Of a DNA stretch of 64,000 bases, positions 19,572 through 47,254 are shown piece by piece (positions within the stretch are counted from its first letter, which is position 1; every line of letters starts with the position of its first letter). The DNA is taken from positions 16,484 through 80,483 of the IMG/VR virus record IMGVR_UViG_3300030101_002616, one strand, 5' to 3'. The notes below the pieces were generated by a model. It ran no database searches. It saw only the letters and a program-made list of their open reading frames with translations, and was not told the DNA's origin. The DNA comes from a virus. The position numbers and the translations under genes were made by a program.

Positions 19572-20528
19572 ATGGCAGTATATAAGAACATATCAAGTAA
19601 AATGATTATACGTAAAGTTATGCGTGACTTGCGTCCTAATCATGCAGAATGGATAGATGATGCGGTAGAGTGGATAGGTGAGGCCTTAGAGCATATAGGA
19701 GCTGCATCACAACTTTGTCAAAAGCAATGCGTGCTTACAATAGAAGATCACAAAGCATGTTTGCCTGGAGACTTATACTTTATAAATCAAGTAGCAGTTA
19801 ATGGTACTGTCGGCACTTCTGCAAGTGATGAGCTTGATGTTCTTACAGAGCAAGTTAGAAAACTCAGAGCTGACATAGCAGAATACAACTCAACATTAGA
19901 AGAAGATGTAGCTAACAATGGAGCTAACATTACTAACGCAGATTTAACTACATATGATACACAATATAAATCAAATGTAACAGAACTTAGAGAGCTAATT
20001 AGTAGGATAACCGTTTTAGAGGGGATATATTTTAATACTAAGGGTGGGGGTGCTGGCCTAGAACCATTACGTTATGGGGCTAGCACTTTCCATAGCTCTA
20101 TGCACTGCGACGATTGTATTAATGAGCATGCACTAAACAATGAAAGTTATATAATAGATTGTGATTTTATAAAAACATCTTTTGCTAGTGGTAAGGTATG
20201 TATAAGCTATACAGCTTTTCCTATTGATGAAGATTGTTTTCCAATGATACCAGATGACATAAGTTATAAAGAAGCTATGTTCTGGTATATATACAAGCAA
20301 ATGTTGTTAGGTGGATATGATAAACCTAACAATAGAATAGATTATAACTTTGCTGATCAGAAATGGAAGTACTATTGTACTCAAGCTAGAAACGCTGCAA
20401 ACTACCCAGATATTGAAAGATATGAATCTTATATGAATCAGTGGGTTAGACTTATACCAGATATTAATGCACACGATTGCTTCTTTGAATACCTAAATCA
20501 TAGAGAAGATTTGAATAGAAATTACTAA
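19572..20528 (+). CDS. Tail tubular/ring protein (crAss Ttub-like)
   Basis: Start at 19572 (MAVYKNIS); WIGEAL, TSFASGKVCISY..FPIDEDCFPMIPD; directly upstream of muzzle. Confidence 0.65.
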   Translation: MAVYKNISSKMIIRKVMRDLRPNHAEWIDDAVEWIGEALEHIGAASQLCQKQCVLTIEDHKACLPGDLYFINQVAVNGTVGTSASDELDVLTEQVRKLRADIAEYNSTLEEDVANNGANITNADLTTYDTQYKSNVTELRELISRITVLEGIYFNTKGGGAGLEPLRYGASTFHSSMHCDDCINEHALNNESYIIDCDFIKTSFASGKVCISYTAFPIDEDCFPMIPDDISYKEAMFWYIYKQMLLGGYDKPNNRIDYNFADQKWKYYCTQARNAANYPDIERYESYMNQWVRLIPDINAHDCFFEYLNHREDLNRNY

Positions 20529-29526: not shown

Positions 29527-31909
29527 GTTAAGACCATATGTTAGTGTTTATAGAGATCCAGGATCTGTACAAATAAACACACTACAAAGACAAAAGTTTC
29601 AACAAGCGTTTAATGCTGATGATGCTTTAGCAGGTGCAGTAGATCAAATGAAGGCTGCAGAATTTGAGGGAGATAAAGCTCTTAAAATGGAACTTGAACA
29701 AAACACTAGAGGTCAATTACAAGACAGAGCGGGTCGTGGTGATTATGAAACTATGACGATGGACGTAGCTAAAAGTGCAAGAAATTTTGAGCAGCAGTAT
29801 GCCCCTATAAATGCTAACTATGAAATATATCAAAACTATAAAAAAACTTTAGATGAGGATTACAAGAAAGGTGACATAGATGCATTTACTTATAGAAGAT
29901 CTTTAGATGCATCCAAGTATAACTATGAAGGGTTACAAAAGAATGAAGATGGAAGTATAGATGATGGTAGCTACTTTAAAGGGTATAACTATGTAAAGGA
30001 TGTAGACATACAAGGAAAAATGTCTGAACTAATGAAAGATCATGCTGTTAAAAAATATGGCAAAGATGTGCAAGTAATTAGTGAGGATGGTAACTACTAT
30101 ATTACTGATGGGTTTTCAAGAGAAACTATACCTGACACTGAGGTAGCTATGGTATTTAACAATCTTATTGCTCAACCTGATGTAGCTGCTTATCTTAATC
30201 AAAAGGCAGAGTTAAGTACTTTTGATATGACAGATGAGGATATTAGAAGTTCTCTAACTCGTAAACTGTATGGAGATGATGATCCAGAATCAGAAGACAA
30301 AGGTCTAATAGGACTGAGAGATAAAGCTATAGCTGCTGGAGATGATAAGTTAGCAGCTGACTACGATGTAATGATAAAAGAAGCTCAAGGCCTTTTACAA
30401 AATGCAGGCGTAGAAACTGAAGATGAAATGATTGCTAAGCGTAGAGACTATATCAAAGGTTCAGTTTTACAATCTGAAGCAAAAAGAGAACTAGATGTAT
30501 CTATAACTAGATTTGCATTTGATAATAGAGAGGTTAACAAAGCAATAAAGTATAGTGAAAAGTGGACAGCAGATTATGGCAAGTTCTTAGATATTTATCA
30601 GCCAGACATCTTAAAGAGAACTGGTGTTAGTGAGATAAGCAATCCTGGTGGAAACAATCCTTCAGCAATAAATGATTATATAAACGGACAGCTTCAAATA
30701 GAAGTAAATGAAGTAAATGCGTTTAATACTTTATACGCTGATGTATTAAAAGGTAGAAAGGTAACTGCTGAAGACATACTAAGTGGTAATGTGCCTGATG
30801 AACTTAAACAAGGAGATGTATATCAGAAACATAGAGATAAAATAATTCTATCCAGAACTCAAAGGTATCTGCAAAACAATCTATTAGACAAGGCAGACAA
30901 AGAAGCAGGAAGCGAATTTAAAGAAGAATTCTTAACTAGTAATTTAGATAGAAATGACCTTACTGGTCAAGACTTACTAGAGAAAGCTAGAGAAGTAACT
31001 GGAAATAGTAACCTAACTTTAATTGAGCTTGGATCTATAATGTCAGATGCTGCAGAACTTACTGCTTACAGCACTCGAAGAAGTGAAGCTATTAGTTTTG
31101 CTGCGGGAGACACTAAAACTGAAGAAGAGTTGAATAAACTTAGAAAGTCTAGAGATATTAAGAATCAAATATATGATGCACTTAATATAAGTAATTTCCA
31201 ACAAGCTGGTATAACAAGCTCATTTAGAGACTTAACTGATAAATATACAGATGGCGTAGAGGATTGGTTAGAAAATAATGCTAAGATTAATGTGGGAGAT
31301 TGGACAGCAAACAACTTCCCAGCTTTAGATAATCCTGCAAAAATTGCAGAAGTTACAGCTTATGTAAAACAATACTTTACTGGTAATGATAAAGGAGGAG
31401 GAGCAGGTAAGCCACTAGATCCAACATTTAAGATTTTCTATGATGGTAAAAAACAAGAAGGCACAGGAACTGTTGGAAGCTTCTTAGAAGATATGGAGTG
31501 GAAGAGTAAAGATGTAAAGGTTGTAGATGTAATGTTTGATCAAACTCCTTACATGGGAGAACCTACACTTCAATTAACAGTTAAAGGTGAAGAAGGGGAG
31601 TCTGGAGTTATTATACTACCATATAGTAATATACAAAATGATCAGATGGATCAGTACTTCCAACTTCCTGGATTTAGATTACAGCAAGAGCTTATGATGC
31701 ATAAACAAGCTAGGGCAGATAATGCTACTATAGGTTTATATGATAAAAAGACTGGAGCATTGGCAAGTCAAATGACTGTAACTTTTGATACAGACAGAGG
31801 AGATGTAGCATTAATAGATGGTAATTATTATCGTTTAGGTAGTAAGGAATTCTTGAAAATGATGGACAGTAACGCAGCTAATTTTGAGTTCAGAACAATA
31901 ACATATTAG
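29513..31909 (+). CDS. Virion cargo/ejection protein
   Basis: Start at 29513 (MSRYKLRPYVSVY); helical; no Cys seen. Confidence 0.55.
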   Translation: MSRYKLRPYVSVYRDPGSVQINTLQRQKFQQAFNADDALAGAVDQMKAAEFEGDKALKMELEQNTRGQLQDRAGRGDYETMTMDVAKSARNFEQQYAPINANYEIYQNYKKTLDEDYKKGDIDAFTYRRSLDASKYNYEGLQKNEDGSIDDGSYFKGYNYVKDVDIQGKMSELMKDHAVKKYGKDVQVISEDGNYYITDGFSRETIPDTEVAMVFNNLIAQPDVAAYLNQKAELSTFDMTDEDIRSSLTRKLYGDDDPESEDKGLIGLRDKAIAAGDDKLAADYDVMIKEAQGLLQNAGVETEDEMIAKRRDYIKGSVLQSEAKRELDVSITRFAFDNREVNKAIKYSEKWTADYGKFLDIYQPDILKRTGVSEISNPGGNNPSAINDYINGQLQIEVNEVNAFNTLYADVLKGRKVTAEDILSGNVPDELKQGDVYQKHRDKIILSRTQRYLQNNLLDKADKEAGSEFKEEFLTSNLDRNDLTGQDLLEKAREVTGNSNLTLIELGSIMSDAAELTAYSTRRSEAISFAAGDTKTEEELNKLRKSRDIKNQIYDALNISNFQQAGITSSFRDLTDKYTDGVEDWLENNAKINVGDWTANNFPALDNPAKIAEVTAYVKQYFTGNDKGGGAGKPLDPTFKIFYDGKKQEGTGTVGSFLEDMEWKSKDVKVVDVMFDQTPYMGEPTLQLTVKGEEGESGVIILPYSNIQNDQMDQYFQLPGFRLQQELMMHKQARADNATIGLYDKKTGALASQMTVTFDTDRGDVALIDGNYYRLGSKEFLKMMDSNAANFEFRTITY

Positions 31910-31910
31910 A

Positions 31911-34900
31911 ATGTCAGAAGAAATTAATCCATTAACCCAACTGCCATATGATGGCGACGCTACAATAGATGCCACTTCTGGTACTGCTGTAGAAATAAAT
32001 CCTCTAACAAAGCAGGCCTATGCTCCAACTACCTCTTATGAGAGTAAAATGAATCAACGTGGACTATCTACTATCTATCAAGATGATCGTGACATAGATC
32101 GTTTTAGAAAGTATAATGTTCCTAGAGGACAGCTGTTAGACTGGGAAGAGATTCGAGCTATGAATCAAACTACTGCAGATAAGTGGGGTAATGGTTTAGC
32201 AAAGATGGGGGTTACCGCTTTAGGAGCTGCAGCAGAAAATACTTTAGGTATACTATTTGGTCTAGGTGAAATGGCATTTGGTAGTGGTGTTTACTATGAT
32301 AATACGGTAGGTAAAGCTGTAGATAATACAAATGCTTGGATGCAGGAAAACATGCCTAACTACTACACAAGAGAAGAACAGAACATGAGCACTTTCAGTA
32401 AGCTAGGAACTGCAAACTTTTGGGCAGATACTTTTGCAAATGGGATAGGATACTCTTTAGGTTCTATTGCATCTATGTATCTTACAGGAGGTAGAGGAAT
32501 AATAGGTCTAGGTGCTAAAGGTGTACAGGCTTTAAGTAAAGCTAAACAAGCAAAAGCACTATACGATTCTACAAAAGCTGTTATAAATGGAACTAAACTG
32601 TCAAGACAGTTAAGTAAAGGGGCCAGCGCATTATCAAAATTTAAAAGACATGGGCAGGTATTAGATGCAGGTCTTATGATGTCTTTAGGAGAAGCTTCTG
32701 TAGAGGCAAGACAAAATCTTAATGATACAAGAGAAGCGCTGTTAGCTATTCATATGGAAAGAGAGGGTATTACAGACCCTGCAGATGTATCCGCAGAAGA
32801 TAGAAGAGAGATAGAAAGAATAGCCATTGCTTCAGGCAACACACACTTTGCAGCTCAACTACCAGTTCTTATGGGCACTAATCTAATGATGTTTGGTAAA
32901 CAGGTATCAGGATTTAGAGCTGCTCAAAGAGCTAGTAAAGATGTATCATTCATTGAGGCAACTCGTAAAGCTGTAAGTAAATATGCTAATGATGGTTTTT
33001 GGAAGGGCACGGCAAGAAGACTTACACCTGCAGCTAAAAATGCTGCGGAAGAGGCTTTCCAAGAAGGTTTTCAATTTGCATCAGGAGTATTTGCTAGTAA
33101 CTATCACACTGCAAAATATAAAAACAATGGTGTAGGAGATATGATGGCTGCATTAAATGAATCATTATCTGAGACATTTGGATCACAAGAAGGTTTAGAA
33201 TCTATATTAGTTGGAGCTTTGACTGGTAAAGTAATGGGAGCAGGTCAATCTATACTTAGTAAAGAGGTATCTACTAGAAAGGCAAACGCTCAAAGACTAG
33301 CTGACTTTATCAATGCTGGACTTCTTGACAATGTTCAAAATTCAATAATAAACTCTTCAGCACAGTCTGATGCAATGAAAAGAATGCAAGCCGCATTAGA
33401 GCGTAATGATCACAAAGCTTTTAAAGATGCACAGTTTGACCTTATATCTTACAACGCACTATATGCTTTAGAAACTGGAGGATTTGAACTGTTCAAAGAA
33501 AAGCTAGAAGATTCTAAGAATCTATCTGATGAAGAGTTTGCAAAACAGTTTAACATTACAGACAAGAATGGAGATCCATTAGATATTGTAAAGGCTACTG
33601 GAAAAACCAAAGCAAAAACCATTGAAGATTTACAAAAGAAACTTGACAACTTTGAAAAAATATATAATAATGTAAGTGATAGATTTGCATTGCCAGATAA
33701 AACTAGTGGACTGCCTAGAGCTCTGATGTCTGAAGAACAAAGAAAAGCTGAGGACCAAACATATGAGAATAGAGCTAGATTACGTAATCAGTTAATATTA
33801 TCAGGGGCTGCACTACAAGATAGAAATCGTAGAATGGAAAGCATCCAGGATAACATGTCAGAGATTATTGCAAACTCTTTGGCAGGTATTGGTGCTACAG
33901 GTAGAGACAAGTTAAACATAGATAAGATTCTTAATGAGTTTTCTATATTCCAAACAGAGCCCGGTGAAGCTGATGCTAAGGACTATGATCCAGACGCAAG
34001 ATTTCAAAAGCTAAGAGAAAACTTATTAACTGCTATTGCAGAAGTAAGTAGGATAGATCCTATTGCTGCAGAGGCTTTAACAGAGCAGGCAAAAGATTAT
34101 GTAGCTCTGGCCCAAGAAACAATAGAAGGACTAGATACTTACAATAAACTTGCATCAGATCCATATGCACAAGCAGAGTTTCAAAGACGAACAGAGGAAC
34201 AAGAAAAAGCAACACAGGCTAGAGAGCGTGCTAAGATGTTAAAGGAGAAGACAGATAAAGCAGAGACATCTGATGACATGAACGAAGCATTAAAAGATGC
34301 AACAGATGATGAGTCTAGAGTACATCTTAAGAAAAAGAATGAGCTTATAGCGAAAGAGAACAGTCTTAAAAAAGACTTTATTGCTAAGGCTAAAGGTGCA
34401 ACTCGTAAAGAAAAGATAGAAGACTTAGAAAAGAAAGATAAAACTAAGCTAACTCCTATACAAAAGAAAGCACTTAACTTAGCTATTGGAGAGTTGAAGA
34501 GACAAGATCAAGCTCAACAGGTAGATAAAGTAGAAGTAAAACCAGTAGACAATTCAGAAGACAATCTAGCACAAGAGGATCAAGGTACCCAGAATGTAGA
34601 AGAAGCATTTAATCCTGATAATATAGGAAAGATAGAAGCTGTATCTGAAGACGGTAGAACATTCCAAATAGATGGTGAAAACTTTTACAATAGATTTGAC
34701 AATCCTTTAGATGCTGTAAAAAGAGATGGTGCAACAGATGAAATCTATGCAGTAGTTCTTGAGGATGAGGATGGTAATACACATACAATACAAGGTCCTG
34801 AGTCTAGAGTAGACGCTCTTGCATATGGTATAATCATGTCAGAGTTATACAAAATAGAAGGTCAGACTACCTTAGACAGAGAAGCAGCTGAAATAAATGA

Positions 34901-37259
34901 AAACGCAATAGCTGAAAAAACTGATAAACTTGCTAAAACAGGTGTGCATGGTAAGAAAAATGATGCAACTCTTAGGTACGAAATATATAAACTTAGAAGA
35001 CTACAAGAGGCTTTATTAGAAAACAGAGACATAATAAGAACCTTGATGATTCAAGACGGCGCATCTAAAACAAAATTAAAAAACGATCGTGCTTTAAAAA
35101 GAATGTCTAAGAAGAATAGATCTTTAGCTAAACAAATCAGTGATAGAAAAAAAGTTCTTAGAGCTAGAGGGAAGTCAATTGGATTAAATCCTAATGAGTT
35201 TATAATGGTAGAGGGTCAAGCTATTGATGCTATTAAAGATACTGAGAAGTTAATACGAGATACTAAGAATGATATTACACGATTAGAGAAAGATGTAGAG
35301 CAACTAACTCAAGACAGAGAAAGATATATAGAGGGTAGGGATACAGAGTCTGCAGAGGCTGCAGCTAGAGATTTACAAGTAGCACAACAAGAGTTAGAAG
35401 ATAGAAAAAAAGATTTAGCTGAAGGTAAAGCTATCTTAGAACTAGAAAAAAATAATTTAAAAAGATTACAAAATGAAGAAGAAGGTAGGATTCCAAGAGA
35501 TGCAGAACAAGTTGCCGAAGGAAGTACAGGAGAAGCTAAAAGGAAAGTCGATGAAGGAGAAGATTCAAATAGGGCTGAAGCTGTTGAAGAAGAGGGGACT
35601 CCTGTAGAAGAAACTGCAGAGCCCAGAGATGTAGATGAGAAGGCTATAGAAAAATCATTGAATGATAAACAGTCTGTAGATAAAGCTAAAACACCTGCCA
35701 GTACTGCTGCGCCTGGTGTGCCTCTAAAAGATGATGAGGTAGTTGTAGATAGAGTACAGCTAATGCCTCCTGCAGAAGGACCAACACTTGGTGAAGCTTT
35801 ACAACAAGAAGCAAAGCCCCCCGTACAGGGTGACAACCTTCCAATGAAAAGTGCAATGGATGATCCTACTATTGGAAGAGGAGATACAAAAATACGTGTA
35901 AATGAAGAAGGTATACCCTTTGATAATACAGATGAGCTTGAACAAAGAATGGGTCTTAAAAGCTTACGTGTTGGGGATGAGGTAGAGTTTGTAATAATAG
36001 AAAACGACTTCTTTGTAGAAAACCATAAAGGTAAAGATACTGAGTTAGAATACTTACCAATATACTATCAAAAGAATGGTGTAATATTAGGTAAGCTACA
36101 GAGATCTACTAGTCAAGAAAAAGCTGAAATAGTAAGAAGACTTCGTGCGGGAGAGAGAGTAACAACTAGAGTATCCGAAGTATTTGCTCCTAACTACAAC
36201 AATGCAAGAATGTCTACACCAGACGGCACTGTAAAATACTTCTATGATCCTAGAGAAAGTTTAGGACAACAACCAATACTTGTATTCTCTGTTGTAGATG
36301 AAGATATACAGCAGCTAGTTGCACCACAAGATCCAGATGTAAACCTATCTTCAATAGATACTAGTAACATAGGAACAGGTCAAGTAGCATTTTTAATACC
36401 AAGTTCTGAGGTCCCCGGTGGACAAACAACTATATCTGTAGGTAGTACAGCTACACTTTCCTCAGCAGCGGTAGATACCACTATTGACCTTCTATCAAAA
36501 GGAGACTTAGAAGGAGCTGCAGAAATAGTTGCAACTAGTTCAGAAGTAGATAGAACATTATCATCAACAAAACGATCACATCTAGAGCTTTTAGAATTTA
36601 AGACAGAGGAGCAGGTAGTAGACAAAGTAGATTTAACTACTGGACAAAGTGTTGCATCTTCTGCCCCTGATAACAAAAGTATAGTATACTATAGTCCTAC
36701 TGCAAACAGACTAGTAAAAATTTCAAATAACAACTTTAAAAAAGCAATAGCAAATCAACCTTTTAAATTAAGTTTTGTTGAGGTTGTTGATGGTCAGTAT
36801 AAAACTAAAGGTGCTCCGGATGCAGAGTACAATAAAGTAAAAGATAATTTTCAAAAAGATTTTAGAGATCTTCTAAGTTCAAAAAAATATCAAGTTAGTA
36901 GAGATAGAATGCAAGCAGGTAACGCTCCATATACTAGCCGTGTAACTGGTAATAGATATGATAGTTATACTGACTATCTTTTTTCTCTTGAAGAAGGAGC
37001 AGTTAGAGAACAGGGAGCGCTAGGTCATAACTCTATACTTGCAACAGACTTAGTTAGAACAGCTGGTGGATTATTCCATAACCCTGTAGTATCATTTGCA
37101 AAAGAAGACATCTTTGGTAAGAGTACAGAACAAATTTCAGAAAATGTTACCTTTGCATCTTCACCTGAATCTACTGGTAAAACATTTAAAAATAAAATGG
37201 CGTCTCCATTTAGAGGTGATACAGCCAGAGAAGATTTTGATAACGACTGTAAACTATAA
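31911..37259 (+). CDS. Giant ejected protein upstream of vRNAP
   Basis: 1782 aa; N-terminal hydrophobic G/A helices, long coiled coils; single Cys at residue 1780. Confidence 0.6.
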   Translation: MSEEINPLTQLPYDGDATIDATSGTAVEINPLTKQAYAPTTSYESKMNQRGLSTIYQDDRDIDRFRKYNVPRGQLLDWEEIRAMNQTTADKWGNGLAKMGVTALGAAAENTLGILFGLGEMAFGSGVYYDNTVGKAVDNTNAWMQENMPNYYTREEQNMSTFSKLGTANFWADTFANGIGYSLGSIASMYLTGGRGIIGLGAKGVQALSKAKQAKALYDSTKAVINGTKLSRQLSKGASALSKFKRHGQVLDAGLMMSLGEASVEARQNLNDTREALLAIHMEREGITDPADVSAEDRREIERIAIASGNTHFAAQLPVLMGTNLMMFGKQVSGFRAAQRASKDVSFIEATRKAVSKYANDGFWKGTARRLTPAAKNAAEEAFQEGFQFASGVFASNYHTAKYKNNGVGDMMAALNESLSETFGSQEGLESILVGALTGKVMGAGQSILSKEVSTRKANAQRLADFINAGLLDNVQNSIINSSAQSDAMKRMQAALERNDHKAFKDAQFDLISYNALYALETGGFELFKEKLEDSKNLSDEEFAKQFNITDKNGDPLDIVKATGKTKAKTIEDLQKKLDNFEKIYNNVSDRFALPDKTSGLPRALMSEEQRKAEDQTYENRARLRNQLILSGAALQDRNRRMESIQDNMSEIIANSLAGIGATGRDKLNIDKILNEFSIFQTEPGEADAKDYDPDARFQKLRENLLTAIAEVSRIDPIAAEALTEQAKDYVALAQETIEGLDTYNKLASDPYAQAEFQRRTEEQEKATQARERAKMLKEKTDKAETSDDMNEALKDATDDESRVHLKKKNELIAKENSLKKDFIAKAKGATRKEKIEDLEKKDKTKLTPIQKKALNLAIGELKRQDQAQQVDKVEVKPVDNSEDNLAQEDQGTQNVEEAFNPDNIGKIEAVSEDGRTFQIDGENFYNRFDNPLDAVKRDGATDEIYAVVLEDEDGNTHTIQGPESRVDALAYGIIMSELYKIEGQTTLDREAAEINENAIAEKTDKLAKTGVHGKKNDATLRYEIYKLRRLQEALLENRDIIRTLMIQDGASKTKLKNDRALKRMSKKNRSLAKQISDRKKVLRARGKSIGLNPNEFIMVEGQAIDAIKDTEKLIRDTKNDITRLEKDVEQLTQDRERYIEGRDTESAEAAARDLQVAQQELEDRKKDLAEGKAILELEKNNLKRLQNEEEGRIPRDAEQVAEGSTGEAKRKVDEGEDSNRAEAVEEEGTPVEETAEPRDVDEKAIEKSLNDKQSVDKAKTPASTAAPGVPLKDDEVVVDRVQLMPPAEGPTLGEALQQEAKPPVQGDNLPMKSAMDDPTIGRGDTKIRVNEEGIPFDNTDELEQRMGLKSLRVGDEVEFVIIENDFFVENHKGKDTELEYLPIYYQKNGVILGKLQRSTSQEKAEIVRRLRAGERVTTRVSEVFAPNYNNARMSTPDGTVKYFYDPRESLGQQPILVFSVVDEDIQQLVAPQDPDVNLSSIDTSNIGTGQVAFLIPSSEVPGGQTTISVGSTATLSSAAVDTTIDLLSKGDLEGAAEIVATSSEVDRTLSSTKRSHLELLEFKTEEQVVDKVDLTTGQSVASSAPDNKSIVYYSPTANRLVKISNNNFKKAIANQPFKLSFVEVVDGQYKTKGAPDAEYNKVKDNFQKDFRDLLSSKKYQVSRDRMQAGNAPYTSRVTGNRYDSYTDYLFSLEEGAVREQGALGHNSILATDLVRTAGGLFHNPVVSFAKEDIFGKSTEQISENVTFASSPESTGKTFKNKMASPFRGDTAREDFDNDCKL

Positions 37260-37262
37260 TAT

Positions 37263-40200
37263 ATGGCTTGTAGATATATAAGAAATAAAAACAATAACAT
37301 TACTAGTGCTATAGCTCCTAATGGACAAAGATCAAAGTTGTTTGATTCTTTAGCTACTGCTACAGGTAACATAGATTCTGCTAGAAGTGTATATGAAAAT
37401 CTTTATACAAAACGTGGTAAAGAATTATATGGTGCTGATTTTGAAAACTTTGAAAAGTCACAAGACTTTTTAACTACTGATGACAACGGTGAGCCTATAC
37501 TAGCAGCTGGTAATGGTTTTTACTATATATTAAAAAAGAATGGTAAAGATAGAATAGTATTAAATTTAAAAAGACCAGTTAGACAGGTATCAAGTAACCT
37601 AAGCTTTGAGGAAGAGCGTGAGATAATTGATACCGCTATTAGTTTTGTAAATGATTTACGTGCACAGAACCCAGAATACTTCAAAGATCCTAAAAAAGTT
37701 ACACAGTTTTTTAATGAAAGCAAAGGTAGCAAAGGTATACTAGCAGAGATAATAGCTACAGAAGCTTTTGATGGTATACCAAATACTAAAGAGGGTAGAG
37801 AGTTAGCTGTAAGTTTAGTAAAGATTGGAAAAGAGCGGGGAGAACAAGCAATGTTAGATGCGCTCCCTGAAGGAGTTACATTGATAACTAAAAACGATAG
37901 GGGATATGTAATGCTTAGTGTGTATGACAACTGGAGTGATGAAATTGCAGATGATGGTACAGGTAACTTATCTAAAAAAGGATGGCGTTCCACTATACAA
38001 GAAGGTCTAGAAGAGTATGGACTAGTTCTACGAGATGATATTGGACAACTATTTGACATAGATGATACCCCAATACGTATACATGATGTATCTAGACTAG
38101 AAGAAAATCCAAAAGATAAACTATCTACTACAGTAAAAGCAATTCTTACAGATATTAGAAAGACAGAACCAAACTCGTTAGGATACTTTACAGCAATACC
38201 CTTAGATGAAATTTATGCAGATATGGCTGAAGCTACTGTTAATCAGCCTGATTTTAATAAGCAACTTACAAGACTAGAGTTTATGTCTAAGTATAAACCT
38301 AATCTTGTTCCTGTGGTAGAAACACTAAAAAGATTGGATAGAGAAGGACAAGCTGCAGTCTTTGCAAACTTTGCTAATTCTTATAAAAACTTTATACAGT
38401 TTAAAACTAGAGTAGAAGTAAAAGAATCTGGAACACGAAGTATAATAGAAATGTTTCCTTCTAATCGATCTAACACAGCGCGTATAGCTGCGACAAGATG
38501 GAATAGACAAGCTGCAAAGGACAGAGCTCCTAATGATAGAGCTCTATATCAATTAGATGAGGATGGAAAGAGAAACGTAATAGATAGTAAAAAGTCTGCT
38601 GCAACTACAGCCTATGAAAAACTATCAAAGTATGAAAATGTAAGAAGTATTCCTAATAATGGGATACAGCTAAATCAAGATGGAAACCCTGTTTTAACTG
38701 AAGAACTTGATGCTATAGTAGAAAATCTAAATGATATGCTGTATAATATGAGCATACAATATGGGCCTACAAAAGAAGCATCTGCAGAAAATCTTAAGAA
38801 ATATTTTACAATAGGAGAACCTAGAAAAAATGGATTTGATTTATATAAAGATTTTGTTGCACCTCCTGGAGGAGCATTACAGCTGCAGAAGTTAATAAAA
38901 AGAATTAATAAGAATGAAGATATATTCACAAAAGATAGAGATATAATAAAACATCTAGCATCTATTACTCCATATTTTAAAACACAAGCAGCAGATTCTT
39001 TTCTAAGTGGTGCAGGTAAAACATATTATCCTATTAATCAGTTAACTACTTTGGATGAAATAGTTAATCATGTTAGGTCAGAAGAGTTTACTAAGACAGT
39101 AGAAGATTTTCAGAATACTAGACTTTTTAATCCTAGCAGTGTAGAAACTAACTATAGATCTCAGTTCTTGTTTGCATTAGCAACCAACGATACATTTAAA
39201 GCTAAGTTTATGTCTGAGGTTCTTGACTCTACAAAAACAGCTAATGATTTTGGTATAGGACAAGACTACGAAAGTCAAAACAATAGAACATCTCTTATAG
39301 CTAGACTAAATGCATTTGCTAACAATGAAGATAAAACAGCATTTAAACTAGCGGTATCTACACAGGCAGATAGAAAGCGTATGGATTTTGTTACTATGAT
39401 AAGAATAGACAAATTACCTATTAGTCAGAGAGAAGCTATTAAAGCATTAATAGTTCAAGACCTTGCGGTAATGGATAAAGCAAATCAAGATATTGCTGAG
39501 ATGCCTGCAAACGAATTAATAAAGGGATACCACTATCTTACAGAACCGCAAGCAGCAGACGGCCCTGTATTTACTATGCCTCAGATAGGATTTTTAAAAG
39601 GAGACTATACTTCTGAGTTACGAGACAACATGACTCCGTATCTAGATGGAACACTTGATGAAACAACTAAGGCTAGAATAGATCAAGAAATAGAGTCGCT
39701 AGTTGATAAAGTATATAAACAGTTAGATGTTTATTACGATGGCTTAGTATCTGAGATGAGACGTTTAGATATAGATAATAAAGAGCTAAGAAGCAGTATT
39801 AGAAATGAGGCAGATCTAAAAAATTTCATAATAAATGATTTCTATGGTAGAATAGAGTTTAATAAACTTTCCCGTGGCGGTATGTCATTTGCTCAAAAAG
39901 GACCTAAAGATTATTACAAACGTATGAAGGGTATTAATACTCCTGGTACAAAACTAGCAATAAAAGGAAGCTTGGATGCAGATCCTAACTATGGCATGAT
40001 GCCTACCTATAATGCTATTACTATAGCTAAATTAGATTTTCAGGACCGTGCAAAAGCATTAAAAATTGCAGATGACATAAATAATAATCTTCAGGATGCA
40101 GGTCTAACAGAGACAGAAGCAAATGAGATAGCTTTACAATATGGAAGTGTAGATAAAGGTGATGCGCAGAGTTTTATATCTCTGGATATGTACCGAGGTA

Positions 40201-43200
40201 TCATGGAAGGAATGGGAGAGTATGGTCCTAAAGATATAGAAGCATATAACAATCATGAAAGTACAGATCCAACCAACCCTAACGCAGGTAGGTATGTAGA
40301 TAATCAGGGCAATGCTAGACCATTACGCCCAGTAAAACCATACGCTGAAGAGTTAACAGTTAGAAATGGTATACCGGTTCTAACCATGGATAAAAACTCT
40401 TATGTAACTATAACTAAAGAACTAGCTGCAGAGTATCCACAACTAGAAAAGATGCGTTCTATTATGGCTAGTCAAGACATACAGGTGGTGCATGAAGAGA
40501 ATGCAACTAAAGGCGGACGTAAAGATGTAAGAGATTTGTATACTAATGACTTACAAAACTTAACACCTATGACAATGGATTCTAGTAAACTTAGATTACC
40601 ATCCATAGAAAGAGATAAGAAGACTGGAGAGATAACATTCTCTAGACAGATCCGTAAAAACGTAATAGCTAACTGGCAATTACCGTTAGATGAATTTGTA
40701 GAGTATCAATCCCTAGTATCAGAAAATATTCAAGAAGACACTAAAAAGTTAGAAGATGAGCTAGGCATAACCAAGTTAAGAAATGCTATAAAAAATAATA
40801 ATGTAGAAGCTATAGCTGATGCTAAACTAGCCTACTTACAAAAACTTAGAGACAAGTTAAGATCCGCTGTAAAAGAAAGAGGATTACCTGACTCTTACAT
40901 AGGCGCACTAAACATTGTACCAAACGGATCGTTTGACTACAGATTTGACATACCGCTAGCATTCCCTAACTACCAAGCTAAGTTTGAACAGATATTTTTT
41001 AGTCTGTTTAATAATGGTATATTCAAACAAAAACTAAAAGGTAAAGAACTAGTTCAGATAGCAGAAGCTGGTGGACATGCGGTTGACAGTGAACTAGAGA
41101 TGTACAATGGTACCAAGCCTGCACAAGTAATGATGCGTCGTAGTGATTTAGGTATCTCAGAAAATGAAAACATAGAAGAGCTTATAGCAAACAATGACCC
41201 AAGAATAAAAGTAATAGGATACCGTATACCTAACCAAGGTAAGAACTCTATGCTTCCAATGCAAGTAATACGCTTTTTACCTGAGTCACACGAGAAAGGA
41301 ATAATTGTGCCGGGCGGTGTAACAAGGCAAATGGGTAGTGACTTTGATGTAGATAAGATGATTACTATACAAAGAGAAGAAGGGACTACTCCTAGAAACG
41401 AGCGTGATAAAAGAATATTTGATATAATGTATAATTCAATCACAGCTAAAGAACATCTATCAGAAGTTCTAGATCCGCTAGATGGTGAACGTCTTAGAAA
41501 CAAAGCAGCTGAAGTTGGTAGAGGAGAAAATGTTATAGACTATAACAACCCTCTATCAGAGCTTGATATGGAGATGCGTAATAAAGCAGGTATTAGACTA
41601 AGAGGTTCTTGGGCTAACATGCTGGCAGGACACAATGTAGCACAAGCAGGTAACCTAAGAATAGATCCAGGCTATGCACCTATTATAGGAGGTACAACTT
41701 ATGATAAACTAGGACAGGTATTTGAATTTGGTACAAAAAAATATAATACTGCTGCAATATCTGCTTATCTATCAGCGGCTGTAGATGCTGCAAACGATCC
41801 AATACAAGTAGATATAAATGATAATGAGTTTACTGTGCCTGTAGCGGGTATGATGCTAAGCGCAGGAGTGCCGCTAGAAAACGTAATAGATTTCTTAACT
41901 CAACCTGCTATACTAGAAGTAATACAGCACGCAAGAGATAATAGTTACCACATGGGACAATTGTATAAATCTATGTCTGCAATTAGAAGACAAAGAAAGT
42001 TGCCAGCATCGGCTGAAACTTCCTACAATATTTCATTACAAGAACTATCTGACAAATCAGAAGATACTCAAGCTAAGATGTTAGATAACTTCGAGTTATT
42101 CTATAAAGCAGGAATGTCTACAGCAAGAGCCTTTAAAGTAATAACACCTGATAACTTAGATAATCTAAATGAAATATCTTCTTTACGAGCTTGGTTAGAT
42201 ATAGAACAACAGTTTACTACAAATCAAGATACTAATATTATTTATGGAGCTGAAGAGTTTGTAACTGAACTGCAGACAGGTAGAGAATCTGTATATCCAA
42301 TACAAGTAGCATACCGAGGAATATTTAATACAATGCTAGGTGCGGCTGAAGAAGCTGGATTCATTAACAATAGACCTGCATTCTTTAGATTTAAAAACAT
42401 ACTAAAAAATAGTTTATTACAAACTAGATTTAATTCTGAGCAACATAAGTTTATTGATAGAGCATTGTTTTTAAAGATAATGGGACACCCGGACAGTCCA
42501 CTAGCAGACTATATGTCTAAGGATCGCTTTGAAAAATTATATACTGATCCTAATAACAACATAGCTATAAGACTAGACAATCTACAGAAGAGTGATAAAC
42601 TATCAAACAATAGATTCTTTCAGTTATTAGAAGCTTCTGATACTAATAATGAAAAAGGTAATCCAGTGTTTACTATACAGTTAAACTCTAATTATGACAT
42701 GACATCTCTAGAAAAAAATACTTTGACAGTTGGATTCAAAGAGATGTTAGAAAGTAAAGACCCAGTTATAGCAGAGTTTGCAAAAGATTTAATAGCTAAT
42801 CAACTAATGTCTACCGGATTCCATCCTAGTAAAAACTCTTACATGGATCTAATACCACCGGAAGCATTTACAACTAGTATATTAAACTCAGCTATGGAAA
42901 GCCCTACCATGTTCTTTAATAAAATTCAAACTGAAACAATAGGACATGACTTCTATAATGACTTTGTTCACGATTTTATTCGTAACTTTGGAAGCGCAAC
43001 GCCTGGCGGTGCTCCACTGTTGCCCGTAGTTAGAAACAGAAATCTTAGTCCTAACAACGAAGGTTTAGTAAGAGTAGATAAAGTAAGAAACCCAAGTATA
43101 TTTAATAAAACAAATGGGTATGCAGCCTACTTTATTACATATCCAAAAGGTGCGGCACCTAAAGTATATGTAAGAGTAAATGGAAACATATATCAAGAAT

Positions 43201-43388
43201 TGCAAATGAAGGGAATAAAAGGAAAACTAAATGAAGTAGGTAGCACTGCAGAAAGAAGTTCTATAAATAAAACAGGCACAACAAGCATGCCAAACATGGA
43301 TACTTACATTGCTAATGCTGTACAAGCTCCTACCCCAACAGATGTAGAACAACCAGTAGAACTAACTAAAGTTTGTAGAATAGGATAA
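37263..43388 (+). CDS. Virion-packaged two-barrel RNA polymerase (phi14:2 gp66-like)
   Basis: 2041 aa; YRIPNQGKNS followed by GSDFDVDK (DFDVD at 41340-41354); DAQ and AAVDAA motifs. Confidence 0.85.
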   Translation: MACRYIRNKNNNITSAIAPNGQRSKLFDSLATATGNIDSARSVYENLYTKRGKELYGADFENFEKSQDFLTTDDNGEPILAAGNGFYYILKKNGKDRIVLNLKRPVRQVSSNLSFEEEREIIDTAISFVNDLRAQNPEYFKDPKKVTQFFNESKGSKGILAEIIATEAFDGIPNTKEGRELAVSLVKIGKERGEQAMLDALPEGVTLITKNDRGYVMLSVYDNWSDEIADDGTGNLSKKGWRSTIQEGLEEYGLVLRDDIGQLFDIDDTPIRIHDVSRLEENPKDKLSTTVKAILTDIRKTEPNSLGYFTAIPLDEIYADMAEATVNQPDFNKQLTRLEFMSKYKPNLVPVVETLKRLDREGQAAVFANFANSYKNFIQFKTRVEVKESGTRSIIEMFPSNRSNTARIAATRWNRQAAKDRAPNDRALYQLDEDGKRNVIDSKKSAATTAYEKLSKYENVRSIPNNGIQLNQDGNPVLTEELDAIVENLNDMLYNMSIQYGPTKEASAENLKKYFTIGEPRKNGFDLYKDFVAPPGGALQLQKLIKRINKNEDIFTKDRDIIKHLASITPYFKTQAADSFLSGAGKTYYPINQLTTLDEIVNHVRSEEFTKTVEDFQNTRLFNPSSVETNYRSQFLFALATNDTFKAKFMSEVLDSTKTANDFGIGQDYESQNNRTSLIARLNAFANNEDKTAFKLAVSTQADRKRMDFVTMIRIDKLPISQREAIKALIVQDLAVMDKANQDIAEMPANELIKGYHYLTEPQAADGPVFTMPQIGFLKGDYTSELRDNMTPYLDGTLDETTKARIDQEIESLVDKVYKQLDVYYDGLVSEMRRLDIDNKELRSSIRNEADLKNFIINDFYGRIEFNKLSRGGMSFAQKGPKDYYKRMKGINTPGTKLAIKGSLDADPNYGMMPTYNAITIAKLDFQDRAKALKIADDINNNLQDAGLTETEANEIALQYGSVDKGDAQSFISLDMYRGIMEGMGEYGPKDIEAYNNHESTDPTNPNAGRYVDNQGNARPLRPVKPYAEELTVRNGIPVLTMDKNSYVTITKELAAEYPQLEKMRSIMASQDIQVVHEENATKGGRKDVRDLYTNDLQNLTPMTMDSSKLRLPSIERDKKTGEITFSRQIRKNVIANWQLPLDEFVEYQSLVSENIQEDTKKLEDELGITKLRNAIKNNNVEAIADAKLAYLQKLRDKLRSAVKERGLPDSYIGALNIVPNGSFDYRFDIPLAFPNYQAKFEQIFFSLFNNGIFKQKLKGKELVQIAEAGGHAVDSELEMYNGTKPAQVMMRRSDLGISENENIEELIANNDPRIKVIGYRIPNQGKNSMLPMQVIRFLPESHEKGIIVPGGVTRQMGSDFDVDKMITIQREEGTTPRNERDKRIFDIMYNSITAKEHLSEVLDPLDGERLRNKAAEVGRGENVIDYNNPLSELDMEMRNKAGIRLRGSWANMLAGHNVAQAGNLRIDPGYAPIIGGTTYDKLGQVFEFGTKKYNTAAISAYLSAAVDAANDPIQVDINDNEFTVPVAGMMLSAGVPLENVIDFLTQPAILEVIQHARDNSYHMGQLYKSMSAIRRQRKLPASAETSYNISLQELSDKSEDTQAKMLDNFELFYKAGMSTARAFKVITPDNLDNLNEISSLRAWLDIEQQFTTNQDTNIIYGAEEFVTELQTGRESVYPIQVAYRGIFNTMLGAAEEAGFINNRPAFFRFKNILKNSLLQTRFNSEQHKFIDRALFLKIMGHPDSPLADYMSKDRFEKLYTDPNNNIAIRLDNLQKSDKLSNNRFFQLLEASDTNNEKGNPVFTIQLNSNYDMTSLEKNTLTVGFKEMLESKDPVIAEFAKDLIANQLMSTGFHPSKNSYMDLIPPEAFTTSILNSAMESPTMFFNKIQTETIGHDFYNDFVHDFIRNFGSATPGGAPLLPVVRNRNLSPNNEGLVRVDKVRNPSIFNKTNGYAAYFITYPKGAAPKVYVRVNGNIYQELQMKGIKGKLNEVGSTAERSSINKTGTTSMPNMDTYIANAVQAPTPTDVEQPVELTKVCRIG

Positions 43389-46300
43389 TGGCAAAAAAAT
43401 GTAGCATACAAGTCAATGGACAAGAGCATATAATGCTAACACAGTTAGCTGATTATATAGATAACTCTGAACCAAACTCTAGAAGTATAGAAAAAGTAGT
43501 AGACATACTAAAAGAAGGTAAAGGTATAACTAGTGTTCAAGGCGTGCCTGGACTGTTTGTTACTGAAGATCAAAGAAAAGATATTAAGTTAATTAATAGT
43601 CAGGGCATGGTGCCAGGGTTAATTGATGTAAAGTACTTTGAATCAATTGCACAGGGACCAGATGGTAGTCCTACAAATATATATAAGATAGAAGTTAATG
43701 ATAATATTCTACAACAAAGACCTAAAGTAGGAGACTCAAACTCTAACTTTAACTATAATAATCAGTATGAGCTAGATCAGTTTAATAGACTAAGCGCTGA
43801 TAAAAAATCTACACAGACTACAGAAAAAGAAATACCAGATAAACCAGAATCTCCTAAAGTATACAGTACAAATGCGCAAGCACAAAACGAACTGCAACAG
43901 CTAGCACTAGATGCAAAAATTATTATTGAAGCACAGCTGCAAGAAGTAAAAGGCTTACCAGATGAAATGCGCGAGAAAAAAGAAATAAGACTTAAAAGAT
44001 TACAAGCAGCTGTAGATAAAATTAAAAGAGCTGATGATTTCTTCATGTTTGTGGTAGCTAATAGGGACAATATAAACAATGCTGTAGAGGAGTTTAATTC
44101 TATAATGGCATTACCTATAGAAGAAAGAGCTAAGCCTAAAAACATGAATCGAATGTATGAAATTAAAAATACACTTGATAGTGTGGATACGCTTGTAAAA
44201 CTTAAACAAGTTGTAATAGATCAAATAGGATTAGGTCAACAAGGAAGGCTGCAAGAAATATTAGATAATATAAAAAACACAATAGATAAAGCAGAAGAAT
44301 TAGATAATAGTTTTGAAAGAGAGATTATACCTATCATGGCAGAGGTATTAGTAGGGTACCATAACCAAGCCATAGATCCAAAGATTGATTCAATAATAAA
44401 AAACATAGAAAAGTTTGGGGACTGGAGAAGATTCAAATCAGAAGTTGATACAACTAATGAATACAAAGAGTTAGAGGAAAGATTAAAAGACGGAAAGATA
44501 ACAACGCAAGGATTTGAAGAAGCTGCAAAAAGAATGACCTTAGATAGTTTTAAAAACAGAAAGATCCTAGGCAGAGATAAGTTAATAAAAGAAATGACAG
44601 CGGCGCACAAAGATAAAAGTGCGTTTTCGTATTACTTTGATCCGTTAATATATTCATCTGAGGCTGCAATACAATTGTTTACTAAGTCTGTAAAAGAAGC
44701 AACGTTCAAGAAAAATGAAATGACTCTTGATTTTAAGTACATACTTAAAGAGGAGTATGATGCATTTACCGAGGGTATGAATGAAACGCAGATAGCTAAA
44801 CTAAATGATGATCTACTAGAAGTTGTCACATATTATAGAAGAGACGCAAATGGAGATATAAGTTCAACGGAGCTACTATCTTTAGTGCACCCGCTATTAA
44901 TAAATAAGTTCAACGAGGACAGAATAAAAATGCGAGAGCGTCTAAATAAAAAATACAATAGACCTCAAAGAGAAGATTATACAAGTAAAGCAGAATATGG
45001 TGAAGCAAATGCAGCTTGGGATAGATCTAAAAACAGAACTCTATATTACAAAGCAGAGCAGAAATGGATTCAAGAAAATACTGAACCAATTGAAGGATGG
45101 GAAAAAGAAATAGCCAAACTTAATAGAGAAATAGGAGAGGCAGAAAAAACATTACAGAAAGCAAAGGCCGCAGGACGTAGTGATGCAGAGTATAATGCTA
45201 TGCAACAAATAAAAGAAACAAGAAAAGCTATACGCTCTATGATAAATCCTGTAACAGGTAAACCCAAAGGGCCTTTAGTAAAACCAAAAACTTCTGTATA
45301 TACTAATCCAAAGTATACTGCCATACAGAACGATCCTAGAAAGAAAAGATATTATGACTTTACTTTAAAATCTCTCAGAGAAACTCAACAAATGATTGGT
45401 AAAAAGAGAATGAGAAGTCAAGTATACGATGAGTATTCATATCTAATGCCTTCAATACGTAAAAATGATTTTGATCGTGCTATGGAACAAGGTCTAGTAG
45501 CATCAGCAAAAGAATTATTATCAGATACATTTACAGTTCAAGAGACAGAAAAAGATGTATTTGGTAACTACAATGAGCAGACAGGAGAGCTACAACAAGC
45601 AGTTCCAGTATTCTATACCAACGAGGTAGATCATAAAGATATATCAAAAGATATAGCTAGTAGTCTATATCAATTTAGAGATATGGCAAACAACTATGTA
45701 ACTAAAAATGAAATAGTAGGACAAGTTATGTTGTTTAGAGATATACTAAAAAACAGAGATACTATGGAAGTGGATGCTGGAGGTGTTGCATATCTAAGTG
45801 GTATAGCAAACAAGTTAGGCGTAAAACTTCCTGCTAAAAAAGCTGGTGAGTCATATACGTTTAAGCACGTTGATGCTTTCATAGATACAATAATGTTTGG
45901 GCAAAGAGAGTTAAAAGAAAACTTTAAAATATTTGGAAAAGAAATATCTGCAAACAAATTTGCTAATGCATTGAATGCTTTTGTAGCAATGAATACGTTA
46001 TCATTTAACTTCTTGCAAGGTGCTAACCAAAGTATAATAGATAACATGGCTCTTATTAGTGAAGCAAACGCAGGTGAATTCTTTAGTCGTTCAGATCTAG
46101 CCTGGGCTAAGTCTCAGTATTGGTCTGAAGGTGCAGGATTATCTGACACTGGAAGATTCATACCTGACACAAAACTAGGTAAAGCATTAGAAATGTTCGA
46201 CGCCTTAACAGAGTTTACAGATCAAGAAGGTAGAAGATTAGTAGGGGGAAGATTACGTAAAGCGCTAGAAACAGGTAACTTATTAGTAGTACAGCAAGCA

Positions 46301-47254
46301 GCTGAACACGAAGTTGCAACTACCAGAATGTTAGCGCTGATGAAAAACTTAGAGGGAAAATTAAAGGATAAGGATGGTAATGTTATAAACAATGAAGATG
46401 GAAAGCCAGCTAATTTATATGACTTACTATCAATAGATAAGAAGACAGGAAAAATGTCAGTAGATTCTAGAGTTGCAAACTTTAATAAGAGTGACTTTAT
46501 AAATCTAGTGCAAGGATTAGCTAGAAGAACTAACCAAACTAAGGGTGGATTTGACAGACCAACTGCACAAAGAATGTGGTATGGTAAACTAGCAATGCTA
46601 TTCCGCAGCTGGCTAGTACCCGGACTAAGACGTCGTTATGGACACGGAGGATTTACAGGCCCAACAGTGCATGCTGATGAAGAGTTAGGAACTGTAACTC
46701 AAGGTATGTACATATCATTCTGGAACTTTTTACGTAAAAGTGTAGCAGATAGAGCATGGCCACATACTGTATTTGATCAACTAACTGAGATGGAGCAGCA
46801 AAATATAAAACGTACAGGAACAGAGTTTGGATCTTTAGCAGCAGCATTTGTTCTAATACAAGCCTTACAAAATCTAGATGATGATGAAGAAAACTTTGCA
46901 ACAAACTTTTTACTGTACCAAACATTAAGATACCAAGCAGAGATAGTACAATGGACTCCAGGTGTTGGAACTATGGAAGCTATTCGTATTTTAAAATCAC
47001 CAACAGCAACAGCAAGACACGTAGAAAAAGCTATTAAACTTTTTGGTCAAATTAAAGACGAAGGATTATATAATCTAGGATTCCCAATAGATGAAAAAGA
47101 TATATTCTATCAAAGAGATTCAGGACGTTATCAAAAAGGTGATAGAAAAATTAAAAAAAGTCTTGAAGATTTACTGCCAATACTCAGAGGTCTAAACAAA
47201 AGTAAGACCCCTGAAGAGGCAGCTCAATATTTCCTAGGAGGAACGTATAACTAA
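43388..47254 (+). CDS. Giant ejected protein downstream of vRNAP
   Basis: 1288 aa, helical; TAATG overlap with vRNAP; single Cys at residue 5. Confidence 0.6.
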   Translation: MAKKCSIQVNGQEHIMLTQLADYIDNSEPNSRSIEKVVDILKEGKGITSVQGVPGLFVTEDQRKDIKLINSQGMVPGLIDVKYFESIAQGPDGSPTNIYKIEVNDNILQQRPKVGDSNSNFNYNNQYELDQFNRLSADKKSTQTTEKEIPDKPESPKVYSTNAQAQNELQQLALDAKIIIEAQLQEVKGLPDEMREKKEIRLKRLQAAVDKIKRADDFFMFVVANRDNINNAVEEFNSIMALPIEERAKPKNMNRMYEIKNTLDSVDTLVKLKQVVIDQIGLGQQGRLQEILDNIKNTIDKAEELDNSFEREIIPIMAEVLVGYHNQAIDPKIDSIIKNIEKFGDWRRFKSEVDTTNEYKELEERLKDGKITTQGFEEAAKRMTLDSFKNRKILGRDKLIKEMTAAHKDKSAFSYYFDPLIYSSEAAIQLFTKSVKEATFKKNEMTLDFKYILKEEYDAFTEGMNETQIAKLNDDLLEVVTYYRRDANGDISSTELLSLVHPLLINKFNEDRIKMRERLNKKYNRPQREDYTSKAEYGEANAAWDRSKNRTLYYKAEQKWIQENTEPIEGWEKEIAKLNREIGEAEKTLQKAKAAGRSDAEYNAMQQIKETRKAIRSMINPVTGKPKGPLVKPKTSVYTNPKYTAIQNDPRKKRYYDFTLKSLRETQQMIGKKRMRSQVYDEYSYLMPSIRKNDFDRAMEQGLVASAKELLSDTFTVQETEKDVFGNYNEQTGELQQAVPVFYTNEVDHKDISKDIASSLYQFRDMANNYVTKNEIVGQVMLFRDILKNRDTMEVDAGGVAYLSGIANKLGVKLPAKKAGESYTFKHVDAFIDTIMFGQRELKENFKIFGKEISANKFANALNAFVAMNTLSFNFLQGANQSIIDNMALISEANAGEFFSRSDLAWAKSQYWSEGAGLSDTGRFIPDTKLGKALEMFDALTEFTDQEGRRLVGGRLRKALETGNLLVVQQAAEHEVATTRMLALMKNLEGKLKDKDGNVINNEDGKPANLYDLLSIDKKTGKMSVDSRVANFNKSDFINLVQGLARRTNQTKGGFDRPTAQRMWYGKLAMLFRSWLVPGLRRRYGHGGFTGPTVHADEELGTVTQGMYISFWNFLRKSVADRAWPHTVFDQLTEMEQQNIKRTGTEFGSLAAAFVLIQALQNLDDDEENFATNFLLYQTLRYQAEIVQWTPGVGTMEAIRILKSPTATARHVEKAIKLFGQIKDEGLYNLGFPIDEKDIFYQRDSGRYQKGDRKIKKSLEDLLPILRGLNKSKTPEEAAQYFLGGTYN

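Follow-up and report, generated by a model that had tools for sequence, protein, structure and literature searches.

Cysteine pairs mark the gene breaks of a giant ejected cargo in crass-like phages and suggest head-to-tail disulfide links

Introduction

Crassviruses are the most abundant phages of the human gut. Both the crAss001 atlas and a 2026 study of phage N4 regard it as open how these phages pack a polymerase-associated cargo of ~0.6 MDa and deliver its parts in sequence. Here, we analyze a stretch of 64,000 nucleotides (hereafter the window), which corresponds to bases 16484-80483 of the 80,483-bp IMG/VR virus record IMGVR_UViG_3300030101_002616 (completeness estimate 93%), and focus on three consecutive genes (positions 31911-47254) encoding giant proteins that we call P1, virion RNA polymerase (vRNAP), and P3. 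Their cysteines lie only at the ends that face one another, and we propose that these facing ends are probably joined by disulfides.

The closest described systems are the blocks encoding gp67-gp66-gp65 in phage phi14:2 (PDB 6vr4) and gp47/gp50/gp49 in crAss001 (PMC10172136), in which the same three proteins follow, in the same order, the muzzle and cargo genes. These blocks comprise a vRNAP with a DFDxD motif, their proteins are packaged in the virion, and fused "polyprotein" forms are known, which were supposed in a preprint (bioRxiv 10.1101/2020.03.07.982082) to be cleaved, perhaps by a zincin domain of gp65. Presence in the virion and ejection are known only for phi14:2 and crAss001 (PMC10172136), and virion proteomics of phi14:2 has gp65, gp66, and gp67 annotated as separate structural proteins. 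In crAss001 virions, many inter-subunit disulfides are found elsewhere in the particle, and partial unfolding is needed for the cargo to get through constrictions of <50 Å (PMC10172136). We found no mention of the cysteines described below, or of a covalent link, in the papers on crass-like phages that we consulted.

An end-to-end disulfide has been seen by cryo-EM in the cyanopodophage A4 (Anabaena phage A-4L, family Saffermanviridae), between Cys1715 of gp27 and Cys5 of gp26 (PNAS 2025, PMC12002296). The A-4L record shows no other cysteine in either protein (gp27, 1717 aa; gp26, 1114 aa), and the two are encoded head-to-tail. A4 therefore resembles our locus in having consecutive giant ejection proteins with a single cysteine at each facing end, 3 residues from the C-terminus in gp27 and at position 5 in gp26, but it has one such link, whereas crass chains would have two to four, and its chain includes no RNA polymerase. 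The A4 paper treats the bond as a local stabilizer and reports no rule, no purging of cysteines, and no co-variation with fusions (PMC12002296). An earlier note on this DNA had stated that no description of a linked chain was known; this holds for Crassvirales, where we found none, but not for the single link published for A4.

The polymerases of N4-like phages (Schitoviridae), such as N4 gp50 and DEV gp71, offer a different comparison. Each is a giant Cys-free ejected chain that is thought to go through the tail partly unfolded, like beads on a string (PMC11445570, PMC13434306), and the lack of cysteines in the N4 vRNAP, which the earlier note had pointed out, is documented (PMC11445570). The N4 enzyme belongs to an unrelated RNA polymerase family and is always one polypeptide, so that it has no terminal cysteine pairs; it is the equivalent of the all-fused crass chains without cysteines that we describe below. 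The 2026 N4 paper leaves open the correspondence between the three crass proteins and the N4 domains. Finally, split inteins and other trans-splicing systems also have cysteines flanking a gene break whose products are rejoined, but the crass ends lack an intein fold, extend only 0-4 residues past the cysteine, and have no known junction-spanning product.

Results

Three Giant Proteins of the Window Have Cysteines Only at Their Facing Ends

The three genes and the four cysteine codons that they contain are listed below, all on the + strand.

31911..37259, +: P1, 1782 aa, 197 kDa (phrog_32390); first link of the putative chain; sole cysteine C1780
37248..37250, +: TGT codon of P1 Cys1780, two residues before the C-terminus (tail ..NDCKL); invariant column C198 of the tail alignment
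37263..43388, +: vRNAP, 2041 aa, 230 kDa; DFDVD at residues 1360-1364; only cysteines C3 and C2038
37269..37271, +: TGT codon of vRNAP Cys3 (N-terminus MACRY..); invariant C3 in the alignment
43374..43376, +: TGT codon of vRNAP Cys2038, three residues before the C-terminus (tail ..KVCRIG)
43388..47254, +: P3, 1288 aa, 147 kDa; last link of the putative chain; sole cysteine C5; its start overlaps the vRNAP stop (TAATG)
43400..43402, +: TGT codon of P3 Cys5 (N-terminus MAKKC..); invariant C5 in the alignment

Together, the three proteins amount to 5111 aa and 574.4 kDa and contain four cysteines, exactly those that the earlier note had picked out when it proposed a chain of ~570 kDa. Translation also agrees with its reading that the outer ends (the N-terminus of P1 and the C-terminus of P3) and the cargo open reading frames (ORFs) at 25453 and 29513 are without cysteine. 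The genes are tightly packed, with a gap of 3 nt between P1 and vRNAP and an overlap between vRNAP and P3. As cysteine makes up 1.72% of the residues encoded by the other 37 ORFs of the window, ~88 would be expected in 5111 aa (Poisson P(≤4) ~2e-32), and the probability that four randomly placed cysteines all fall ≤5 residues from the four facing ends is ~2e-11. Chance is excluded as the source of this placement. The window thus combines a suppression of cysteine over thousands of residues (4 found vs. ~88 expected), as in ejected proteins of the N4 gp50 type, with sole or near-sole cysteines within ~5 residues of facing C- and N-terminal ends, as in A4 gp27-gp26.

Facing Cysteines Are Conserved Across Crassvirales

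We compared 107 related loci representing 78 lineages (clusters at 80% core identity), phi14:2 and crAss001-like phages included, and scored a cysteine as terminal when it lay within 10 residues of a protein end. The four-cysteine pattern, with no other cysteine, recurs in 18 IMG/VR loci at 27-51% identity and in phi14:2, where the sole cysteines are C1797 in gp67 (1797 aa; tail ..NTIC), C3 and C2179 in gp66 (2180 aa; N-terminus MACK.., tail ..QECK), and C3 in gp65 (1421 aa; N-terminus MSCK..). The terminal cysteines persist, alongside a few added internal ones, in crass phages such as the crAss001-like Kehishuvirus, DAC15, cr85_1, and Dulem virus 41. Facing ends in crAss001-like phages read ..AIRCS (2310-aa protein) and MSKRC.. 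(2412-aa protein) at one junction and ..DKICG.. (2412-aa protein) and MAKKC.. (1349-aa protein) at the other. Over all loci, 102 of 103 junction-facing C-terminal ends and 101 of 103 junction-facing N-terminal ends carry a cysteine, as opposed to 2 of 52 outer N-terminal and 1 of 70 outer C-terminal ends, and internal cysteines number 158 in 404,674 aa (0.39 per 1000 aa).

The exceptions could be traced one by one. That of L078 (loci are designated by L numbers) is a start-codon miscall, its true N-terminus being MAKKC; with miscalls corrected, both classes of facing ends stand at 102/103. In L030, the partner is an upstream partial ORF ending in ..KKKEC that had been missed by our ORF filter, and in L046 the next ORF, which starts with MANC, had been missed by the ORF size filter. 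Cys-less breaks in L008 (6100-6150) and L029 (12820-12850) are single frameshifts within genes that are continuous in relatives, the real end of the L029 polymerase being ..INKKC; these frameshifts are sequencing errors or recent damage. The single remaining exception is L055, where the P1 gene is absent from the sampled locus. The P1 gene of 27 crAss001-like loci is encoded on the other strand and converges with that of P3, and its product still ends in its sole cysteine. Both cysteine codons are used at the tips, with a TGT:TGC ratio of 89:14. The facing cysteines are therefore conserved and paired in homologues, from phi14:2 gp67/gp66/gp65 to crAss001-like phages (102/103 and 102/103), which the earlier note had singled out as a check of its proposal. 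The case for an evolutionary rule of cysteine pairs at gene breaks is very strong.

Cysteine Pairs Come and Go With Gene Breaks

Across loci, the number of cysteines tracks the number of gene breaks. Junctions in fused proteins were placed using BLAST and a MAFFT alignment of 42 chains, profiles of 400-aa terminal pieces being too weak. Where P1 is fused to the polymerase and followed by P3 (L038, L036, L059, L080, L016, and cr1_1), the only cysteines are those at the C-terminus of the fusion and at the N-terminus of P3; the P1-polymerase fusion of L038, for example, has 4209 aa and one cysteine, at position -2. Where P1 precedes a fusion of the polymerase to P3, only the C-terminal cysteine of P1 and the N-terminal cysteine of the fusion are found, as illustrated by L088, in which a protein of 1772 aa with one cysteine at -2 is followed by a protein of 3833 aa with one cysteine at position 5. 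Triple fusions, six complete (5329-5711 aa) and four partial, all have zero cysteines. The former junction is a Cys-free stretch in L016, cr1_1, and cr52_1, and the stretch equivalent to the break in fused relatives is, in a rough alignment, gappy, polar, unconserved, and linker-like. Since L016 has lost exactly the C-terminal cysteine of P1 and the N-terminal cysteine of the polymerase, and has kept the other pair, pairing is head-to-tail.

Breaks also occur at several nonhomologous places, each with its own cysteine pair. In L058 and L093, the polymerase is cut, with residues 2256-2571 of part 1 corresponding to gp66 856-1127 and residues 23-462 of part 2 to gp66 1145-1548. The catalytic protein is in two pieces in these loci, cut ~190 aa before DFDxD, with a cysteine pair at the cut. 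In L080 and L059, the break is inside P3. L089 (14584-21650) has an extra link of 1167 aa between the P1-polymerase fusion and P3, with cysteines at C4 and -2; past its first 80 residues, this protein has no detectable similarity to other parts of the chain. In L046 (7356-9949), a pair of free-standing GIY-YIG endonuclease genes (Pfam E = 2e-8 and 5e-8) breaks up P3, and its fragments of 92 aa (C4, C91) and 345 aa (C3, C345) each have a cysteine at both tips. The 345-aa fragment contains an ART-PolyVal ADP-ribosyltransferase domain and gives weak GNAT matches.

On a maximum-likelihood tree built from the vRNAP cores of 74 representatives, we count at least nine switches between the split and the fused state at break 1 and at least five at break 2, hence at least 14 overall, with several switches inside starred clades, the 30-member clade of the window among them. 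The facing cysteines are therefore gained and lost together and vanish on fusion, as the earlier note had expected of a joined chain: all-fused chains have no cysteine and new breaks have new pairs.

As a separate observation, the giant genes of L024 (cr52_1) and L066 contain in-frame TAG codons and are read through only if TAG is recoded. TAG recoding is known for some crass-like phages.

Terminal Cysteines Define a Putative Joint With Almost No Side Branch

The C-terminal cysteine is followed by 0-4 residues in 95 of 102 cases, and the N-terminal one is preceded by 2-4 residues, Met counted, in 96 of 101. Because the cysteines are so close to both ends, a joint between them would have almost no side branch. 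In alignments of the upstream tails, the cysteine alone is invariant, while in those of the downstream N-termini at both breaks M1 and the cysteine are invariant and are followed by a conserved small domain. The N-terminal modules of the polymerase and P3 are alike (hhalign probability 83%, E = 8.6e-6, ~45 residues), and the first ~45 residues of the two proteins (37263-37400 and 43388-43520) look like copies of one small module, M-x-C...NG..S.L. Motifs of the C-P-N-x-N or C..NG..S.L type are found after either break in different lineages. The residue next after the cysteine is commonly Lys or Arg, which, going by general thiol chemistry, would favor a reactive thiolate.

The Three Giant Proteins Belong to the Crassvirales vRNAP Cargo Block

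The vRNAP of the window matches PDB 6vr4 (phi14:2 gp66) with E = 2.5e-25, and its tblastn matches, phi14:2 g066 included, are spread across Crassvirales. These matches identify the middle protein as a crass-type vRNAP of the two-barrel type with a DFDxD motif, homologous to gp66. By position, P1 corresponds to phi14:2 gp67 and to the 2310-aa "RNA-polymerase subunit" of crAss001-like phages, with both of which the first parts of relatives align; P1 and gp67 share alignments to certain of these first parts (e.g., part 1 of L080 and part 1 of L102). P3 is the counterpart of phi14:2 gp65 and crAss001 gp49, and aligns to the P3 parts of relatives that align to gp65. By these similarities, P1-vRNAP-P3 is assigned to the Crassvirales vRNAP cargo block of the phi14:2 gp67-gp66-gp65 type.

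None of the three chain proteins of the window has an HExxH zincin motif. The HEFGH zincin module is missing from P3 in the window and in its nearest relatives L001, L002, and L005 (1286-1290 aa), and is present near residue 228 in sister clades (P3 of 1453-1494 aa), so that the shortening of P3 in the window's sub-clade looks like a deletion of ~170-200 aa. Four complete all-fused chains without cysteine (L040, L041, L042, and L047; 5472-5711 aa) are also without HExxH. Because the P3 sub-clade of the window and these four chains lack the motif, self-cleavage of the polyprotein by a zincin is not general, and it is excluded for the four chains.

Other structural searches gave little. A phmmer search of P1 and P3 against PDB sequences returned nothing meaningful. 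An AlphaFold2 model of P3 residues 1-450 (mean pLDDT 68.3) had no Foldseek match in the PDB at E ≤ 0.001, with A4 gp26 not among the rows, and A4 gp26-29 had no BLAST match among all chain parts. Complex prediction for the C-terminal 200 aa of P1 with the N-terminal 300 aa of vRNAP scored 0.21 vs. a mark of 0.32, the fold of the partner being uncertain.

Upstream of the giant ORFs, on the same strand, lie a muzzle ORF and two cargo ORFs, a gene order equal to that of L019.

20528..25450, +: crassvirus muzzle protein, 1640 aa (PF25731, crAss_MUZ, E = 8e-49); 9 Cys
25453..29526, +: cargo protein 1, 1357 aa; N-terminal LysM (PF01476, E = 2e-12) and endolysin-like region (phrog_7348); 0 Cys
29513..31909, +: cargo protein 2, 798 aa; 0 Cys

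This gene content identifies the source of the window as a crass-like phage, for which megablast of the region against INPHARED phages revealed no near relative. From its family match, the muzzle ORF is a non-ejected tail protein and marks the crass structural block upstream. The LysM and the endolysin-like stretch of cargo protein 1 fit an ejected protein acting on the cell wall. Neither cargo protein has cysteine tips, which places both outside the putative chain. Elsewhere on the + strand, the ORFs at 636-5102 (1488 aa, 53 Cys) and 10337-12346 (669 aa, 37 Cys) are very rich in cysteine, in marked contrast to the Cys-free cargo block.

Discussion

From the cysteine rule and its co-variation with gene breaks, both read directly from the genes, we infer a bond, its disulfide chemistry, and its role in ejection. 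The best explanation, and in our judgment a likely one, is that facing termini are linked head-to-tail by disulfides that rebuild one linear chain. P1, vRNAP, and P3 would be the split form of a single ejected polyprotein of ~5100-5700 aa, which some Crassvirales encode as one Cys-free gene. At each break, the upstream product would end in a flexible tail with one cysteine 0-4 residues from its end, and the downstream product would present an M-x-C or M-x-x-x-C start followed by a small folded N-terminal module. Within the particle, disulfides between P1 Cys1780 and vRNAP Cys3 and between vRNAP Cys2038 and P3 Cys5 would restore an almost unbranched linear chain of ~574 kDa, which could act like the fused protein, or the single-chain vRNAP of N4, during packing and in its later passage, partly unfolded, down the tail. 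Oxidation would probably take place after lysis, inside the released particle, and the purge of all other cysteines would prevent wrong cross-links. Cys purging is also a trait of other ejected phage proteins. The disulfides and constrictions of the crAss001 particle, together with the end-to-end disulfide of cyanophage A4, make such a chain plausible. Of the earlier note's idea that the ends are joined by a disulfide or a shared metal for packaging and sequential threading, the head-to-tail link is supported by the way pairs co-vary with fusions and new breaks, while the chemistry and the two purposes are, there as here, proposals.

A metal ion (Zn, Fe, or Cu) bridging each facing pair, alone or with Asp, Glu, or Lys, would give the same chain topology, and the co-variation data cannot separate a two-thiolate bridge from a disulfide; acidic residues, moreover, are often found ahead of the C-terminal cysteine in P1 tails. 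We nevertheless regard it as unlikely: there is one cysteine per end, with no conserved CxxC, His, or second Cys as in a zinc hook or clasp, single fusions leave two cysteines, too few for the usual tetrahedral site, and A4, the sole solved analogue, has a disulfide. We also reject a Zn(Cys)4 knot tying the four ends together, as single fusions retain only two cysteines, and the selective loss of one pair in L016 likewise speaks against a single four-cysteine metal site. That the terminal cysteines act singly, forming homodimers or anchoring the proteins to the portal, the inner capsid, or other cargo, would suit a virion as rich in structural disulfides as that of crAss001, and direct contact between the termini is after all something we deduce. 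This reading, which we consider quite unlikely, leaves unexplained why cysteines are at junction-facing and essentially never at outer ends, why pairs are lost jointly on fusion and gained jointly at new breaks, and why all-fused chains are Cys-free.

The cysteines flank each break in the manner of extein junctions, which might point to thioester or intein-like ligation rebuilding the polyprotein by a true peptide bond. We find this highly improbable, as Pfam detects no Hint or intein family in the three proteins, the 0-4 residues past the cysteine hold nothing intein-sized to excise, the N-terminal cysteine would not come first even once Met is cleaved off, and gp65, gp66, and gp67 are annotated as separate proteins in phi14:2 virions. 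The close packing of the window genes, with their 3-nt gap and TAATG overlap, could suggest that a nucleotide signal at the junction, for translational coupling or recoding, for instance, yields the cysteine codons as a by-product. However, the pattern also holds with P1 encoded on the opposite strand, away from the vRNAP start, and both cysteine codons are in use, so the constraint is one on protein rather than on a DNA or RNA junction signal; the distance from cysteine to end also varies. This explanation is refuted by the strand and codon data, and chance has a probability of ~2e-11 in the window alone.

Several points weigh against a disulfide chain. No crass-like phage has so far yielded an observation of the bond. 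Virions are put together in a reducing cytoplasm, and gut crassviruses live without oxygen. No thioredoxin-fold gene was found in the 80,483-bp record, and a search of the record for an Erv1/Alr thiol oxidase gave none, although controls likewise gave none. Gut lineages bear a few internal cysteines. A4 is, by the searches above, an analogue and not a relative: its proteins show no detectable resemblance to the crass ones in sequence, or in fold with the P3 model, which is of moderate quality. Reductive release, which the earlier note had made part of its proposal, is not essential, because fully fused relatives exist that cannot be released in this way. Of the at least 508 IMG/VR matches to a vRNAP-core alignment search, we sampled the best 80 and added chosen records, ORF starts were taken throughout as the first ATG, and break positions come from rough alignment at 20-25% identity. 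The three proteins are, in addition, not resolved in the crAss001 maps (PMC10172136).

Cysteine-tipped, otherwise Cys-free giant ORFs can be annotated as links of an ejected chain, and a Cys-less break flags a frameshift, as in L008 and L029; cultured representatives of these phages are phi14:2, crAss001, and DAC15. We lean, if only slightly, toward a broader rule of "disulfide splicing," by which a Crassvirales polyprotein might be cut in many places, by fission or homing endonucleases, provided that the new ends gain cysteines, its pieces being rejoined in order in the particle and released as separate enzymes, the RNA polymerase included, in the reducing cytoplasm. Such a solution would have arisen independently in A4 and may be widespread in podophages with large ejected proteins. 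A disulfide chain would explain why these genes fuse and split freely and how they tolerate endonuclease insertions. If it exists, a redox-labile covalent chain would give a 1:1:1 stoichiometry, a fixed order of exit, and equivalence to the single-chain polymerase of N4, and would possibly explain how the polymerase is activated on arrival.

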